A DNA stretch of 64,000 nt from Escherichia phage vB_EcoM_Ozark. Each line of letters begins with the position of its first letter. Position 1 is the first letter of the stretch. The DNA is taken from sequence record NC_054927.1. One strand, 5' to 3'. Below, in pieces: positions 12-44,685 of the stretch. Under the pieces are notes generated by a model, which did no database searches, had not been told where the DNA came from, and saw only the letters and a program-made list of their open reading frames with translations. Made by a program: the position numbers and the translations under genes.

Positions 12-2189
12 TTAGGCCGCAAGGGCCTTCATAGTTTTAGCGATTTGGGAAACTTCATCATCACTTAAAGAGTTGCGATAACCGATGAAGTCGGAAACAA
101 TACGGAATTTCTTGGTAAACTCAGCAACCATTTTATCACTATTTTTTGAAGCATTACGTGATAATTCATCAAAGAGATTAGTTACTGTCCAGATATCATG
201 ACCGATGGTATCTTTTCCACCATTGAAATACACACCGCGTAATGAACTAACCATATTACCAAGTCGTGTATATTCTTCAGAAACTTCATCTGTACTGAAG
301 TACTTCATCATAAAATCTAGTTCAGGATACTTGATAATTTTATCAATATATCGTTGAGCTGAACTTGAATAACCTACGTACTTATCATAATCTACATCAT
401 CAAAAGCATCTACATATAAATCACGCAAAGCTTCAAAAATACATTGGCACTGACCGAGTTCTTTTACCTTTTTCTGTAAAAGCGGACGAATAACATAAAA
501 TTCATTAATGCCAATAAGATTAGCCATACGAATCAAAATATTCATAGATGGATGACAAAGTGATGTAGTACCATCCATAGAGAAAATATCAGAACGATGC
601 ATATACGCTACATAACCAGTAATTTCATCTGCTTCTGACGTAAGTGTAAATAATTCCTCTTTTTCCCAACGCCCATCTTTAATTTCAAACTTAAATGCTG
701 TAGCAGCTTTAGGACGAGGAGCTTTACTTTTAACTACCTTTGGAATATAGCTTTTAACTAAAGCTTCAATTTCTGACAAATAATGAATGTTAACTTCATC
801 ACTTTCAAACATTGCCATAATATCAGGTAGTAAATCAATCTGCGATTCTACTTCCGGATTAATAAATAGAAGACGCTCATTGTGATGAATATTTAAAGTG
901 TTATTAAATTCACTATCATCTAGCGCATGTGCTAATCCACGGACAATATTAACACGATTTTTAATATTATCAATAACGATATTAATTTTTGTTGTATTAA
1001 TACCAAACAGACGATAACTTGACGCAACGGCTGATGTTTCATGACTTTGCTTAATGCGCTTCAGTCGAGGGTCAAGATTTACTTCATACACAACTCCTGC
1101 ATTACATAACTTACTGTCAGGTTCAAACATGCTCTGCATTTTCTTATATGACAGATTTTTAGTCGTGAATTTGACTGAATTACTAATCATATAATCTCGA
1201 GCAGAATACCCCATCTTCATCAATTCACGATATGTGTGACGAGGAGATGTAGATTCTTTAAATCGTTTTACATCTTCATTAAATGCTTTCTCACTAAGCT
1301 CTTTAACTCGTTCAATAATATTTTTACGAGTGCGATCATCTAATGAAAGAGCTTCACGTGATGGAGCAATATCAAGTGAACCCATTGGAAATTTAATGTA
1401 ATTCACTTCATTACGAATGCTTAGCCAGTTACGGTCTCTAATAACACCATCGATAGGATAAACAATACCACCATAGATAGCATATAATCCACCACGATCA
1501 GGCCAGTATCTTTCTGGATTTACACCGTAATAGTCATCAAAATCCGGAAAATAATCAATTTCGCGGTCAAGACCATTAATGATAGCCAAATCTTTGAACG
1601 GTCGCATGATATAAGAAACTTCATAAGCAAAGTTTCTAAAGTCTTTTTCTTCAACTGGAACTACGATTTCAATACCAGTTTTATCATCTGGACCCATTTC
1701 TTTCACGAATGTAGGTTTAATTTGTGGACCATCGCCATCCATGTAAGCTACATAACCACGAATTTCACCTTTATGATACGAAGTAATACTAAATGTATCA
1801 GTATAACTAAACGGAGATTTAGAACCTAAACCAAATCCGCCAATGAAATCGTTAGATTCAGCCTTAGATGAACTGAAGTATGAATTATACAAACCAGGAG
1901 AATTATCATCACCCTGAATATCAAAATCACTCATACCCGGACCAAAATCTCGGCAAACAAATCGTGGATCTAAACGTCCAGGAACTTGAATGATAAATTT
2001 TTCAGGATTTCCATTGAGAGCATGGGCATCAATCATGTTGGTAATCAATTCACGGACTACTGCGCGAATTTTGTTTGTATACAAATCAGATGACAGAATT
2101 TTAAATACTTTAGGAGATGCTGTGATGCTAAATGCTTTTGATTTAGAACCATTGCCAAGAATAGTTTCTTTTTCAGTGGTGATAATCAT
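12..2189 (-). CDS. rIIA: rIIA membrane-associated protein (725 aa)
   Basis: 725-aa ORF, size and position match T4 rIIA at start of map; N-terminal GHKL-like ATPase motifs. Confidence 0.9.
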
Positions 2190-4345: not shown

Positions 4346-4614
4346 TATTTAAAACGAATAGTTGAATCCTTAAAGAACAGCCCAGAACATAATGTTCCTT
4401 CTACTTTCTGCCCAGTAGATCCAACAGCACGAAATCCAGTATGTTGGAAATCATTTTCAGAGCAACCGAACCAGTTATATCCAGTGATTTCAATATTCGT
4501 AAAACCACTTGATGATAAAATTTTAGTTGCATTATCAGCATCAGTGCATCCTACTAAAGATACTGCTAATACTAATGCTGCGATAGAACGATTAACATAT
4601 TTCATAATTTTCAC
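4345..4614 (-). CDS. predicted lipoprotein (39.1-like), signal peptide with LVGC lipobox
   Basis: N-terminal hydrophobic signal plus LVGC motif. Confidence 0.5.
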   Translation of the reverse strand: MKIMKYVNRSIAALVLAVSLVGCTDADNATKILSSSGFTNIEITGYNWFGCSENDFQHTGFRAVGSTGQKVEGTLCSGLFFKDSTIRFK

Positions 4615-4982
4615 TTAAATTTAATGGCTTGAAGGAGACTAATAATTCTTAAACGGCTTCTTTCATCTTTAACTGTAAAAGAAAGAGGGTCGCCAGATTT
4701 CATAGTAATAGTGCATTCAAAATCAAAATCTTCTGTGACTTCTTCGAAGAAGTCAAATTCTTCATCATAAATTAGAACACTACTTTGCAGACTGTGGAGA
4801 GTTTTTCCAGCATTTCCAGATGCTGTACCAATCATTGTAACATTATGACCTTTCATATCTTCAACGATAAATTCGTTTGTCAATATTACAGCATTAATAG
4901 AACTATTCCTATTACTAACAGAAAGTAGAAATTTCTGTTCTTCACCTTCACGAATACGATATTTCTTACCAATTTTAAACAT
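4611..4982 (-). CDS. hypothetical protein (123 aa)
   Basis: ORF, ATGA overlap with downstream gene. Confidence 0.45.
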   Translation of the reverse strand: MFKIGKKYRIREGEEQKFLLSVSNRNSSINAVILTNEFIVEDMKGHNVTMIGTASGNAGKTLHSLQSSVLIYDEEFDFFEEVTEDFDFECTITMKSGDPLSFTVKDERSRLRIISLLQAIKFK

Positions 4983-40462: not shown

Positions 40463-40771
40463 TTAATCTTCTATGATATCTCTATCATATCCAAGTGAAA
40501 TGAGAGTTTCTTTGAAGTGTTTAATGTTCTTTTGTCTAGAATCATTAATGAAAATGACTGGATAACGAATGTTAAGAGATGTGAATCCAGCGCGTTTAGC
40601 AAGAGATACAATCAGCGGACGATCATACTCAATCTTACCATTATTTGTAAGAACTTTATAGAAAGTAAAAGGAGCATTGAGCTCCTTTAGAAGTTTTGTA
40701 ACTGATTGACATCCAGGACAACGACCTACTTCATCTGGAATTCCATAGACTTCAATCTTATTTTGTTTCAC
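40463..40771 (-). CDS. nrdH: glutaredoxin-like protein NrdH (CPGC active site), 102 aa
   Basis: CPGC motif near N-terminus; next to nrdG. Confidence 0.65.
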   Translation of the reverse strand: MKQNKIEVYGIPDEVGRCPGCQSVTKLLKELNAPFTFYKVLTNNGKIEYDRPLIVSLAKRAGFTSLNIRYPVIFINDSRQKNIKHFKETLISLGYDRDIIED

Positions 40772-40773
40772 AA

Positions 40774-40986
40774 CTATTCCTTACTAAGAGCAGCATTCAG
40801 CTTGTTAGTAATTTTATCCAGACGCTCATTAAACTCACTAGAAGATAAGCCCTTTTCTGGAGAAATTAAACTAATCACGAAAAATATAGCAATAAAAGGA
40901 ATAAGGAAAATAGCTCCAACTGCCATAAACAGAAAGAATGTTACAGTTGTAAGAAAATCAGCTAAACCTTTACGAAATTTATACAT
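40774..40986 (-). CDS. small membrane protein (70 aa)
   Basis: one long hydrophobic helix. Confidence 0.4.
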   Translation of the reverse strand: MYKFRKGLADFLTTVTFFLFMAVGAIFLIPFIAIFFVISLISPEKGLSSSEFNERLDKITNKLNAALSKE

Positions 40987-41101
40987 ATTTTACCCTTAAT
41001 TGATTAACCAAGCATTGATAAGCACTAAACTATATTGCGAATAAAATTCTGGACCAAAATGAAAAATCATATCATTTATAGTGTCCATAATATAATTCAA
41101 T

Positions 41102-41572
41102 TTAATCATGTTTCCACACCCCATCGGTATTTGACCAAAGTCGCTGATTATCTGATCCTCGCCACAGCTTTTTAGTCGGAAGATTTTTCTCATACTTCCC
41201 ATCAATAATAACATCAACATATTTAAGCATTTCTAGTTGTTTAATATCTTCAAACTTATATCCTGTCCACAACCAAATGCTTTTATTGGGATAAAGATTT
41301 TTTACTGTTTGAACTACAGAGTGAATCACGTCTCTGTTATCAGGATAAAGAGGGTCACCTCCGGTTATAGTTAATCCTTCTATATAATCATTATTCAAAC
41401 ATTCAATCAATTGTTCTAGTGTTTCACCAGTAAATGGAATACCATTTCTAGCATTCCATGTTGATTTATTATAACACCCTTCGCATTTATGCAAACAACC
41501 TGTAACGAAAAGAACGGTCCTGCAGCCAGGACCATTAACAAAGCAGCACGGGTATATTCTGTCATAATTCAT
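41102..41572 (-). CDS. nrdG: anaerobic ribonucleotide reductase activating protein NrdG (radical SAM), 156 aa
   Basis: Cys cluster CCFVNGPGC...CLHKCEGC. Confidence 0.9.
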   Translation of the reverse strand: MNYDRIYPCCFVNGPGCRTVLFVTGCLHKCEGCYNKSTWNARNGIPFTGETLEQLIECLNNDYIEGLTITGGDPLYPDNRDVIHSVVQTVKNLYPNKSIWLWTGYKFEDIKQLEMLKYVDVIIDGKYEKNLPTKKLWRGSDNQRLWSNTDGVWKHD

Positions 41573-42401
41573 TTATATATTTCCAATTATAGCCTTCAAC
41601 ACTTTTACGTTCGCCATTTAAACATTTTAAAATATTTCCTTTGCTAGAAATATTAAAATATTTTGCTGCGTCTGGTATATAATTAAATGTTTTTAAAAGA
41701 ACACCATCTTTATATGCGCCAAATAAATTAAGAGTATATTTTTCTCGAAGACGCTGATGTTTCCTTTTCATAACCTCAGGATTTGCATACGCCAACTTCA
41801 ATGAATTTCTGTGTTTTTCTTTTACTTCAGGTTTTTGCATTGCTAACTTAGTTAGCCTGGAAATTTTATTTCTAACTTCGTCAGTTTTCATTGCATTTGA
41901 CAAATTTAATAAAGTTTTATTTCTAACTTCAGGTTTTTGCATTGCTAACTTAGTTAGTTCTCTATGTCTTTTTCTAAAATCGTCATCCTTCCATATATTT
42001 TTCGATAATTTTGACATAGAGCGGTGAAATAATTCCTTTTCACTGGAATACAATTTAAAAATTTCATCCAATTCATCCGCATTAAATCTATCGGTATTCG
42101 AGTTTATCATTCTATGAAAGGCATAACACATTTTACTATTGCTTGTTTTAGCTAAATAGTAATGAGCTAACGCATGGTCATAATATGACAAATTAACAAT
42201 ATTCCATTTATCTGTTTTATATTCAGGAAATATAGATTTGGGAAGCACGTGATGTGCTTCCGTTTTTCCTTTTATTTTAGGATTATTATAATTTTTTGTT
42301 ATCAAATCAACATATGACAATAGTAAATCATTATTTTCTTCAAATATTAAAGCTAATTTATCATTCACAAAATCGCAAGGATAAAATCTATCATAATTCA
42401 T
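41562..42401 (-). CDS. HNH homing-endonuclease-like protein (mobC-like) with repeated DNA-binding motifs, 279 aa
   Basis: EAHHVLPKS...DHALAH motif; tandem LTKLAMQKPEV repeats; sits between nrdD and nrdG. Confidence 0.65.
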   Translation of the reverse strand: MNYDRFYPCDFVNDKLALIFEENNDLLLSYVDLITKNYNNPKIKGKTEAHHVLPKSIFPEYKTDKWNIVNLSYYDHALAHYYLAKTSNSKMCYAFHRMINSNTDRFNADELDEIFKLYSSEKELFHRSMSKLSKNIWKDDDFRKRHRELTKLAMQKPEVRNKTLLNLSNAMKTDEVRNKISRLTKLAMQKPEVKEKHRNSLKLAYANPEVMKRKHQRLREKYTLNLFGAYKDGVLLKTFNYIPDAAKYFNISSKGNILKCLNGERKSVEGYNWKYINEL

Positions 42402-44215
42402 TGGTGTTTAACCCTATGCATGATTTCTTTATTTTTACCGAGATTAAATCCGCGTTCGTTCGGATTTCCCAAATAACCACATGTTCTTCTTATGGTATTC
42501 ATCTTTTTAGGATCAGTTTCTCCACAAATAGAACAAACAAATCCGTTTTCAGTAGGAGTCATTTCATGGGTGCTTCCGCATGTAAAACATTTATCTACTG
42601 GCATATTAACACCAAAATAATCTAAATGTTGTGCAGCATAATCCCAGACGGCCTCAAGTCCCTTTAAATTGTTTTTCATATCAGGAAGTTCAACATAAGA
42701 AATGTGACCACCTGTTGCAATGAAATGATATGGGGCTTCGCGAGAAATCTTTTCAAACGGAGTGATATTTTCTTCTACTGAAACATGGAAACTGTTAGTG
42801 TACCAGCCTTTATCAGTAACATCCTTTACACTTCCATATTTTTCAGTATCAAGTTTACAGAAGCGATAGCACAGGTTTTCAGCAGGAGTAGAATACAAGC
42901 TAAAAGCAAAACCGGTTCTTTCAGTCCACTGCTTAAGACGAGCATTCATTTTAGTTAAAATTTCCTGTCCAATATCACGACCGACAAGAATATTCAATTC
43001 GTGAATACCAATGTATCCTAGGGACACTGAACTTCTACCGTTTTTAAATAACTCAATTATGTCGTCATCAGGTTTAAGACGAACCCCGAATGCACCTTCT
43101 TGGTAAAGAATAGGAGCAACAGTCGCTTTAACTCCTTTTAAGGAACTAATTCTACACATCAAAGCTTCAAAACACAAATCCATTCGTTCATTGAATAATT
43201 CAACAAATTTCTGTTCATTGAACTGTGTTCCAATATAAGAATCTAACGCGATGCGAGGAAGATTCAGTGTTACAACACCAAGATTATTACGTCCATCAAG
43301 AATTTCATTACCAGTCGAATCTTTCCATACGCTCAAGAAACTACGGCAACCCATTGGAGAAACAGGAACAGATGAACCAGTGATAGCTTTATTGTTCTTA
43401 GCTGAAATAATATCAGGATACATCCTTTTGCTTGCACACTCTAGAGCAAGCTGCTTAATATCATAGTTCGGATCGTCTTTGTAAAGATTAACGCCTTCTT
43501 CGACGAACATAACAAGCTTAGGAAAAATAGGAGTTATCCCATCACGACCGAGACCTTTAATACGATTTTTCAGAATTGCTTTCTGAATCATTCGTTCAGT
43601 CCAGTCAGTTCCCGTACCAAATGTAATTGTTACAAAAGGAGTCTGTCCGTTTGAACTAAAGAGAGTATTTACTTCATATTCATAAGCTTGGAATGCATCG
43701 TATACGTCTTTTTCTGTTTTAGATTGAGCATAATTCAACGCATCAGCGATTTGCCATTTTTCTGCGTCCTCAATATGTTTTGCATAGGTGCGTTTAACAT
43801 AAGGAGAAAGTACTTTATCTACATTAGCAAAAGTCGTTCCGCCATATTGATGGGAAGCAACTTGCGCAGTAATTTGTGCCATAATTGCAGTAGCAACTCC
43901 AATTGATTTAGGAGTTTCAATCTGCGCATTACCAAGCTTAAATCCATTCTCAAGCATTCCTTTTAAATCTACTAAACAACAATTAGTAAATGGAAGAGCA
44001 GGGGAATAATCAATATCGTGGAAATGAATAATTCCGCTTTCATGCGCTTTCATAATAAAAGACGGGACCATATTTTTGGCAATGTGTTTAGACACAATAC
44101 CAGCCATAAGGTCCCGTTGAGTTGGAAAAACACGAGAATCTTTATTAGCATTCTCGTTTAAAAGGTCTTTATTAGTTTTATGAATCAATCCTTCAATTTC
44201 TTTTTCAATTGTCAT
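42398..44215 (-). CDS. nrdD: anaerobic ribonucleoside-triphosphate reductase NrdD (glycyl radical enzyme), 605 aa
   Basis: C-terminal glycyl-radical RTCGYLG and Cys zinc ribbon. Confidence 0.95.
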   Translation of the reverse strand: MTIEKEIEGLIHKTNKDLLNENANKDSRVFPTQRDLMAGIVSKHIAKNMVPSFIMKAHESGIIHFHDIDYSPALPFTNCCLVDLKGMLENGFKLGNAQIETPKSIGVATAIMAQITAQVASHQYGGTTFANVDKVLSPYVKRTYAKHIEDAEKWQIADALNYAQSKTEKDVYDAFQAYEYEVNTLFSSNGQTPFVTITFGTGTDWTERMIQKAILKNRIKGLGRDGITPIFPKLVMFVEEGVNLYKDDPNYDIKQLALECASKRMYPDIISAKNNKAITGSSVPVSPMGCRSFLSVWKDSTGNEILDGRNNLGVVTLNLPRIALDSYIGTQFNEQKFVELFNERMDLCFEALMCRISSLKGVKATVAPILYQEGAFGVRLKPDDDIIELFKNGRSSVSLGYIGIHELNILVGRDIGQEILTKMNARLKQWTERTGFAFSLYSTPAENLCYRFCKLDTEKYGSVKDVTDKGWYTNSFHVSVEENITPFEKISREAPYHFIATGGHISYVELPDMKNNLKGLEAVWDYAAQHLDYFGVNMPVDKCFTCGSTHEMTPTENGFVCSICGETDPKKMNTIRRTCGYLGNPNERGFNLGKNKEIMHRVKHQ

Positions 44216-44685
44216 TTTAAACTCTTTCTAAGCTGCTTCTTAAATGAAGCTATTAACTGTGTTTTGGTGTCAGATTCATTATATTCAAATCCTCTTTGAA
44301 GCATCTCGGCCATCATTTCCTCTTTTCCTAAACGAGAAAATTCCTTTGATTTATCTCCAACAAAGTTAGGGTGAATATTATTTTGGGTGTAATCGGATTT
44401 TAAATAAGTAAGTAAATTTTCTAACCATTCAAGATAATCAACACCTTGTCCCTTTAAGCCAGAACGATTAAATTTGTGCTTCATTTGACCTTCTGCAGCA
44501 TTGCAGAGATTACAAAGCAATCCACGTACCTTTCCTGCTTTTGGTCCATTTAATTCATGGTCATGATCGAGGTGATTAGCTTGAACATCAGGATTTAGTT
44601 CTCGTTGGCAAATTAAGCATTTACCGTTTTGCGCATCATAAAATTTCTGTTTTTCTTCTTTATATAATTTGCCAGTCAATAACAT
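44212..44685 (-). CDS. 49: endonuclease VII (Holliday junction resolvase), gene 49, 157 aa
   Basis: CLICQRE...HLDHDH...CNLCN motifs; 157 aa. Confidence 0.9.
   Translation of the reverse strand: MLLTGKLYKEEKQKFYDAQNGKCLICQRELNPDVQANHLDHDHELNGPKAGKVRGLLCNLCNAAEGQMKHKFNRSGLKGQGVDYLEWLENLLTYLKSDYTQNNIHPNFVGDKSKEFSRLGKEEMMAEMLQRGFEYNESDTKTQLIASFKKQLRKSLK

Follow-up and report, generated by a model that had tools for sequence, protein, structure and literature searches.

Organisation of the nrdD-nrdG junction

We analysed a stretch of 64,000 nucleotides (nt) from Escherichia phage vB_EcoM_Ozark (NC_054927.1), a Tequatrovirus (T4-like); this whole stretch is called the window below. Our subject is an open reading frame (ORF) for an HNH homing endonuclease that is read after nrdD and before nrdG, the genes for anaerobic ribonucleotide reductase's large subunit and for its activase, and in particular the way in which this ORF is joined to the start of nrdG. 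All three genes lie on the minus strand (Table 1). The ATG of the nuclease and the stop codon of nrdD overlap as ATGA. At the other end of the ORF the TGA stop codon occupies nrdG nt 9-11, giving an 11-nt overlap of the two ORFs, as had been noted in a prediction made earlier from the sequence of this locus (hereafter the original prediction), which placed the nuclease stop within the first codons of nrdG. The GC content of the cassette body is 27.8% compared with 35-37% in the flanking genes. There is no good Shine-Dalgarno sequence at nrdG, with or without the cassette upstream, and mobC, the T4 gene found at this position, has likewise been noted to be without one (PMC2988022).

Table 1. 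Features of the nrdD-nrdG locus in the window. Amino acid (aa) positions are those of the nuclease; S and R denote the two alleles of the nrdG 5′ end described in the text.
Feature	Position	Strand	Evidence
nrdD, anaerobic ribonucleotide reductase large subunit, 605 aa	42398..44215	minus	Pfam NRDD 1e-171, Gly_radical 1e-25
HNH homing-endonuclease ORF, complete, 279 aa, starts MNYDRFYPCDFVN	41562..42401	minus	PHROG 655, PHROG 12434
nrdG, radical-SAM activase of NrdD, 156 aa, intact, starts MNYDRIYPCCFVN	41102..41572	minus	Fer4_12 1e-48, Radical_SAM 2e-7
Left copy, nrdG nt 1-40, common S allele	42362..42401	minus	nuclease-free nrdG starts
Private cassette body, 789 nt (263 codons), without a start or stop of its own	41573..42361	minus	alignments
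Right copy, element-borne nrdG nt 1-40, R allele MNYDRIYPCCFVN	41533..41572	minus	allele comparisons
Cluster of 8 substitutions, R versus S (nrdG nt 12-30)	41543..41561	minus	binomial P = 4e-7
HNH core, aa 46-84, EAHHVLPKS...WNIVNLSYYDHALAH	42150..42266	minus	MobC alignment, predicted beta-beta-alpha fold
Five tandem helical repeats of ~17 aa (PEVRxK...), aa 138-221	41739..41990	minus	repeat search, structure model
C-terminal module resembling NUMOD1 / I-HmuI helix-turn-helix, aa 235-272	41586..41699	minus	sub-threshold Pfam
10-bp hairpin and U-rich tail, nrdG nt 37-60	41513..41536	minus	folding, allele comparison

The start of nrdG is present twice

The starts of the HNH ORF and of nrdG are identical at 30/39 nt, or at 31/41 nt over a slightly longer span, and at 11/13 encoded residues, whilst the 60 nt upstream of each ATG match at only 17/60 positions, which is chance level. 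A repeat search of the window returned the pair as a 41-nt direct repeat of 78% identity with a spacing of 829 nt. Elsewhere in the 64-kb window, with both strands considered, no ungapped match to the nrdG 41-mer exceeds 24/41. Moreover, of 4278 pairs of ORF heads compared (mean 14.1, standard deviation 2.9), this is the sole pair to reach at least 30/39. Chance similarity of the two starts is thus ruled out by both comparisons, and the match of about 40 nt reported in the original prediction is real and far above chance. The two copies are of different origin. The upstream (left) copy, which supplies the first 13 codons and one further nt of the nuclease ORF, is the resident 5′ end of nrdG; the downstream (right) copy, which provides the functional nrdG start and the nuclease stop codon, travels with the element.

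The cassette is inserted within nrdG

A megablast search with the locus returned 1020 phage records, 28 of which span the whole query, and hundreds match in two pieces that leave out 829 bp. In ~560 related phages nrdG directly follows nrdD and precisely the ATG-to-ATG segment is missing; its length is 829 bp for Tequatrovirus and, for a set of Klebsiella phages described below, 826 bp, in both cases the distance from ATG to ATG. Against these ~560 empty sites, the cassette is carried by 20 Tequatrovirus and 10 Klebsiella-phage records, with an identical junction in all of them and with flanks that are 96-100% identical. It is therefore present or absent at one fixed site among close relatives. 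Comparison with genomes in which nrdD directly precedes nrdG had been put forward in the original prediction, and the exact absence of 829 bp bears out its proposal on this point as well: the start similarity is above chance and the insertion is polymorphic among relatives.

The nuclease-free genomes also tell the two copies apart. In RB27, nrdG directly follows nrdD with an ATGA overlap, and its first 39 nt match the start of the window HNH ORF at 38/39 positions versus 30/39 for the start of the window nrdG. S-type nrdG starts were found on 12 nuclease-free metagenome or IMG/VR contigs, 6 of which are 40/40 to the window left copy. A 160-nt query across the left junction was fully covered in 20 records, and more than 200 nuclease-free GenBank phages are 100% identical to nt 1-100 of this query (60 nt of nrdD and 40 nt of nrdG). 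Every one of these alignments ends exactly at nrdG nt 40. Therefore, the upstream copy is the resident nrdG 5′ end and the foreign DNA begins at nt 41; it ends with the downstream copy. The left copies of the Tequatrovirus cassettes fall into three S sub-alleles, each of which is also found in nuclease-free genomes: the common one, one in PST with T36 (as in RB27), and one in Ec_MI-02, HZ_ZJUN4 and TB004 with C9/C24/T27 (as in the nuclease-free contig L046). An exact-pattern scan of IMG/VR gave 2 T4-like contigs only, and a scan of metagenomes gave no more cassette-bearing contigs, only 10 nuclease-free S-type nrdG starts.

From these alignments the cassette is 829 bp long in the window, made up of a 789-nt HNH body and a private, re-coded copy of nrdG nt 1-40, placed in frame after nt 40 of the resident gene. 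By its sequence, the nuclease is translated from the resident nrdG ATG, with the first 13 resident codons as its N-terminus, and ends at the TGA inside the spare copy. nrdG itself is rebuilt from the spare copy and the resident sequence from nt 41 on. The original prediction attributed the duplicated start to target-derived sequence carried by a homing endonuclease inserted between nrdD and nrdG. The connection between the duplication and the insertion of such an enzyme stands, but the site is not the nrdD-nrdG spacer; it is in frame after nrdG nt 40.

With respect to annotation, the RB27 record (KM607000) has nrdG beginning at an internal start (locus 703..1095), which leaves a 74-nt 'gap' after nrdD. 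The full nrdG ORF (locus 703-1173) starts at 1173 and overlaps the nrdD stop.

The same cassette in Klebsiella phages

The same nuclease, with 86% aa identity, is found in 10 Klebsiella T4-like phages. In Roth04 the nuclease starts MNFDRIYPSDFVN and nrdG starts MNYDRIYPCCFVN; in the nuclease-free Roth20 it is nrdG that starts MNFDRIYPSDFVN. Compared with the start of Roth20 nrdG, the Roth04 left copy is identical at 39/39 positions and the right copy at 29/39, and the two genomes are identical for more than 70 nt beyond nrdG nt 40. The gene upstream of nrdG in these phages is a 78-aa ORF and not nrdD, and therefore the sole homology on the left that is shared with Tequatrovirus is nrdG nt 1-40. 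The right copies of the window and Roth04 differ at 6/40 positions, all synonymous, and both encode MNYDRIYPCCFVN. Their identity between the genera (85%, 34/40) matches that of the nuclease body (84%). The right copy, on this comparison, belongs to the element and travels with the nuclease.

Between the two genera the nuclease shows a synonymous divergence (dS) of 0.86 and a ratio of non-synonymous to synonymous divergence (dN/dS) of 0.08, and is therefore under purifying selection. The adjacent nrdG has a dS of ~2.0 and 69% nt identity. As the dS of the nuclease is less than half that of nrdG, the cassette moved after the two phage groups diverged. The nuclease is younger than the host genes that surround it, and the cassette as a whole is polymorphic in two genera, selected at the protein level and horizontally transferred.

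A contrasting history would have a single ancient entry followed by vertical inheritance, in which most nuclease-free genomes have lost the cassette by recombination between the two copies and the protein may now be inactive or put to some other use. The two copies do agree fully over 11 nt at one of their ends and over 10 nt at the opposite end, which would allow scarless loss to an R- or S-type nrdG, and a natural variant of the nuclease lacking one internal repeat shows that repeat-mediated deletions occur. R-type starts are found in the nuclease-free genomes U5 and ESh24 and, in part, in the mosaics ERS-1 and F1, and the activity of T4 MobC is listed as ND (PMC2988022). However, the dN/dS given above speaks against decay, the two dS values date the movement of the cassette to after the hosts had diverged, the distribution is patchy between near-identical flanks, and the left copies track the local sub-alleles. 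We consider such a history unlikely.

The 78-aa ORF of the Klebsiella phages lies between nrdD and nrdG, overlaps both and bears a MazG-like label in one record. In two of these T4-like phages it is at locus coordinates 1296-1529 and 896-1129.

The nuclease and the origin of its N-terminus

The predicted protein matches PHROG 655 'homing endonuclease' (7e-37) and PHROG 12434 'HNH endonuclease' (7e-15). BLASTP aligns it with the HNH core of T4 MobC (E 1e-7), a core that itself passes the Pfam HNH cut-off (27.6 bits). The residues H50, H51, N67, H76 and H80 are invariant in the alignment, and the catalytic core of the T4 Mob-type homing endonucleases (HH...N...H) is thereby present. An AlphaFold2 model (mean predicted local distance difference test score, pLDDT, 73) places a beta-beta-alpha unit at residues 47-84, with strands at 47-51 and 68-72 and a helix at 73-84 (pLDDT ~90), then five helices that recur every 17 residues (140-221) and, at the C-terminus, a hairpin with helices. 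At aa 235-272 the C-terminus gives sub-threshold matches to PF22083 (2.4e-4; 21.1 bits, cut-off 27) and NUMOD1 PF07453 (5.7e-3). NCBIfam returned spurious weak matches only.

The LTKLAMQKPEV repeats of the original prediction exist, as a 42-nt repeat of 90% identity with its units 102 nt apart. As for their likeness to NUMOD modules, the PEVRxK repeats have no direct match to Pfam NUMOD3, but they align with a segment of the homologue P0007 that scores above the NUMOD3 cut-off. Within the helical repeats there is a recent tandem duplication of 102 nt (34 aa; 41814-41855 and 41916-41957), and the natural variant P0002 is without exactly one 34-aa repeat unit.

Outside the locus, the nearest paralogue lies between genes 47 and 46 of T6 and is 36% identical. 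A convincing alignment with it begins only at residue 14 (DKLAL / EKLAL), precisely where the portion taken from nrdG stops, and the 18 residues that precede this point in the paralogue are unrelated. In the window, the only in-frame ATG upstream of the region homologous to this paralogue is the one derived from nrdG. Therefore, the private 789 nt contain neither a start nor a stop. We compared 155 family sequences, namely the listed 50%-cluster representatives of 16,689 members together with earlier matches, and within this sample an NrdG-like N-terminus is confined to the present clade. Similarly, no capture of a start from a neighbouring gene was seen at 26 distant IMG/VR loci, where the best start match was 20/39 nt. 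Start capture thus appears to be specific to the nrdG-linked clade.

Could the shared N-terminus instead be functional mimicry or convergence, for example if an NrdG peptide or its mRNA served expression or NrdD binding? The peptide is in frame in both ORFs in three lineages, those of the window, the Klebsiella phages and, in a shorter form, T4. Yet at synonymous sites the left copy shows no difference from the local nrdG allele in any of these lineages, and it is therefore identical by descent and not convergent. Moreover, confidence in the model is low over its first 10 residues, and the paralogues have unrelated N-termini. Mimicry is accordingly very improbable.

Two alleles at the 5′ end of nrdG

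The right copy is the variant allele MNYDRIYPCC, designated R, and the IYPCC variant occurs again in the Klebsiella cassette. R differs from S by eight substitutions in nt 12-30, among them GAT to TGC (D10C), and also at nt 55-56. The density of substitutions in nt 12-30 (8/19) stands against a background of 17/415 (binomial P = 4e-7). By analogy with other homing endonucleases, this cluster is a candidate self-immunity or anti-recombination patch. We take E. coli NrdG to carry D10 as in the S allele, in which case S would be ancestral, which would speak against an old resident cassette as well. At nuclease-free junctions R is rare (~3/560); the allele therefore shows a strong link with nucleases at this site, although not with this one alone.

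The second nuclease in question is SegH, a GIY-YIG enzyme. In T6, which carries segH, the R allele is identical to the window right copy over nt 1-47, and the nrdG genes of PST (with the HNH gene) and T6 (with segH) differ at 3/471 nt. segH is the commoner of the two, with 73 records against ~30, and its cassette also carries a re-coded end of a host gene, the last 78 nt of nrdD. One could therefore suppose that R is a footprint of SegH, that the HNH cassette recombined in beside it, and that the duplication is a neutral scar of illegitimate insertion. However, the Klebsiella cassette also has the IYPCC copy, with a synonymous divergence that matches the nuclease body, and, at the sensitivity of megablast, Klebsiella phages showed no segH-like DNA. 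Moreover, the foreign tract in the Roth04/Roth20 pair ends sharply within nt 1-40. On balance we hold a SegH footprint to be improbable, somewhat more so than loss from a single ancient entry.

Several of our observations nevertheless weigh against a mobile cassette with a protective spare copy. Because R is shared with segH and with the nuclease-free U5 and ESh24, the cluster at nt 12-30 could reflect the history of SegH. The lack of R-type left copies is uninformative as evidence of immunity, R-type nuclease-free genomes being rare. Deletion across the 10-nt TTTGTGAATG repeat is, in principle, another route to S-type nuclease-free genomes. Pfam HNH gives no direct match to the nuclease. A Foldseek search of the model against the PDB gave nothing at E <= 0.001 and a profile search of PDB sequences nothing meaningful; neither search confirmed the I-HmuI-like fold. 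Finally, besides the ND entry for its activity, mobC is listed as free-standing at nrdG/nrdD with its target unknown (PMC2988022).

Among nuclease-free genomes, two are mosaic over nrdG nt 1-60: F1 has only the R markers at nt 55-56, and ERS-1 only the R block at nt 12-30. These mosaics show frequent short-patch exchange at the nrdG 5′ end. The same region can form a terminator-like hairpin, AATGGTCCTG-GCTG-CAGGACCGTT, followed by CTTTTCGTT, and the insertion point (nt 40|41) falls in its 5′ arm. The hairpin is kept in the S, R, Klebsiella-type and T4 alleles (-14 to -19 kcal/mol). Its pair nt 42-55 covaries, being C-G in the S, Klebsiella-type and T4 alleles and T-A in the window and T6, and is mismatched in the mosaics U5 and F1; in Ec_MI-02 the hairpin is lost. 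Its conservation could reflect only the coding constraint of VNGPGCRVV.

Relationship to known elements

In descriptions of T-even phages, free-standing homing endonucleases are placed between genes. T4 MobC, for instance, is described as 'inserted between nrdD and nrdG' (bioRxiv 10.1101/2022.08.31.505936). T4 mobC has the layout of the window nuclease in a reduced form. It is at the same site, its ATG overlaps the nrdD stop, its first 21 nt are the nrdG 5′ end (MNYDRIY), and it stops in nrdG codons 3-4 with an 11-nt overlap. The C-termini are also alike (...WKY..EL; T4 mobC ends ...WKYKDEL). However, MobC has 210 aa versus 279 aa, with 38% identity over a 60-aa core only, and a left copy of 7 codons versus 13. 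The nrdG allele to which it is linked is another one (MNYDRIYPCDFVN), and a ~300-nt tract of nrdG resembling that of Klebsiella phages is likewise linked to it. The best tblastn match of the window nuclease in T4 genomes is mobD (32%). Since only 60 aa align and mobD is the best T4 match, this is a different Mob-family nuclease with the same architecture. The term mobC-like in the original prediction is thus apt for position and architecture, but not for sequence beyond the HNH core. Orthology with T4 mobC was rejected, as full-length similarity is lacking and only 60 aa align at 38%. T4 mobC might hold a decayed left copy that extends further (SNLVN against PCDFVN, allowing a gap of one codon), but this alignment reached only ~11/21 nt by hand and was not counted. 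By number of records, the T4-type mobC (32) and the window nuclease (~30) are similarly frequent and segH (73) more so.

T4 nrdG (NC_000866, locus 4447-4917) is itself a mosaic. Over nt 121-300 it has 88-100% identity with Roth20 and only 45-72% with the window, and over nt 301-471 its identity with the window is 98-100%. The pattern suggests that the intergeneric tract of ~300 nt entered together with T4 mobC. Upstream, nrdD has no intron in the window, whilst T4 and PST nrdD have a group I intron with I-TevII.

segH of T6 shares the nrdD-nrdG junction, where it replaces mobC, and the same R-type nrdG 5′ allele; like the window cassette it runs into the genes on either side and carries with it a re-coded end of a host gene. 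In contrast, SegH is a GIY-YIG nuclease (TIGR01453 / NUMOD3) without a copy of the nrdG start, and its re-coded segment is from the end of nrdD, not the 5′ end of nrdG. In T6 (MH550421; locus 1562-1650, 739-745) the identity of nrdD with the window is ~97% up to a point ~78 nt short of the stop codon and 53-67% beyond it. The SegH start ATGCATAGG corresponds to the native nrdD codons ATG CAT AGG (9/9), read in another frame relative to nrdD, and the SegH stop overlaps the nrdG ATG.

A parallel is the MobA element of T4 gene 60/39, in which a divergent copy of host sequence around the nick site is derived from the insert, preserves host function and protects from self-cleavage (bioRxiv 10.1101/2022.08.31.505936). 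The MobA cassette is likewise a Mob-type HNH gene inside a conserved coding gene with divergent host-derived sequence. It differs in that the topoisomerase gene is split into two ORFs and a 50-nt translational bypass is required. In the window cassette nrdG is unsplit; there are two copies of its first 13 codons, and the resident one is fused to the nuclease. Similarly, in phage Aeh1 the HNH homing-endonuclease gene mobE lies inside nrdA, a ribonucleotide reductase gene whose function is kept. There, however, nrdA is split into two polypeptides with added tails, whereas the window nrdG is a single intact ORF.

Other classes of element do not fit. The copies are 40 nt long with 9 differences, and the right one has diverged with the element across genera, unlike a transposon-style target-site duplication; there are no terminal inverted repeats and the only ORF is that of the HNH nuclease. 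No Rfam family was found in window positions 40500-44500 at E <= 1, which excludes a group I intron. The nuclease ORF is out of frame with the downstream nrdG and therefore read-through of the intein type is impossible. In the full-text literature that we searched there is no description of a duplicated start; the 2005 SegH/Hef paper (NAR 33:6203) lay outside that search, and an earlier mention is possible.

A proposed mechanism

Taken together, we think it probable that the HNH ORF belongs to a mobile homing-endonuclease cassette that lives within the 5′ end of nrdG and not between genes. Homing, the cleavage site and self-immunity are inferred here by analogy with characterised T-even homing endonucleases and the MobA cassette. 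In a mixed infection, the enzyme would nick or cut an S-type, nuclease-free nrdG near nt 40, and repair from a cassette-bearing genome would copy in both the body and the spare 5′ end. During double-strand-break repair the 3′ end of the recipient would keep its own nt 1-40 as the left copy, whilst the spare copy would lie inside the gap and so always be copied. The dense substitutions at nt 12-30 would block re-cutting of the rebuilt nrdG and reduce recombination and deletion between the two copies. Since both homology arms would lie in the conserved nrdG, entry would be possible into phages with a different upstream gene.

Translation would be coupled in a chain from nrdD through the nuclease to nrdG, making nrdG dependent on termination and reinitiation after the nuclease. 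Recombination across the identical ends of the repeats, of 11 nt and 10 nt, would remove the cassette without a scar and leave an R-type (as in U5) or an S-type nrdG respectively.

The more general proposition, that a cassette with neither start nor stop colonises the coding 5′ end of a conserved gene by means of a re-coded spare copy of the first 13 codons, we put forward more tentatively, at slightly less than even chances. The finding itself is a refinement in a well-studied field, and a new architectural variant, not a new system. If true, the proposition would add a further way of living inside an ORF to introns, inteins, split genes with added tails and translational bypass, and such a cassette could cross phage genera whatever gene lies upstream. 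The target of nucleases at the mobC position would then be predicted to be nrdG around nt 40, with the immunity determinant at nrdG nt 12-41 and especially in the GAT to TGC change at nt 28-30. This would explain how the cassette could move between Escherichia and Klebsiella T4-like phages that have different genes upstream of nrdG. The comparison with relatives shows that at least one nuclease at the mobC position is an in-frame insertion in nrdG that uses the start of its host gene and repays it with a spare 5′ end. In this way a selfish gene may occupy coding sequence and leave its host gene intact, which adds one to the solutions of this problem.

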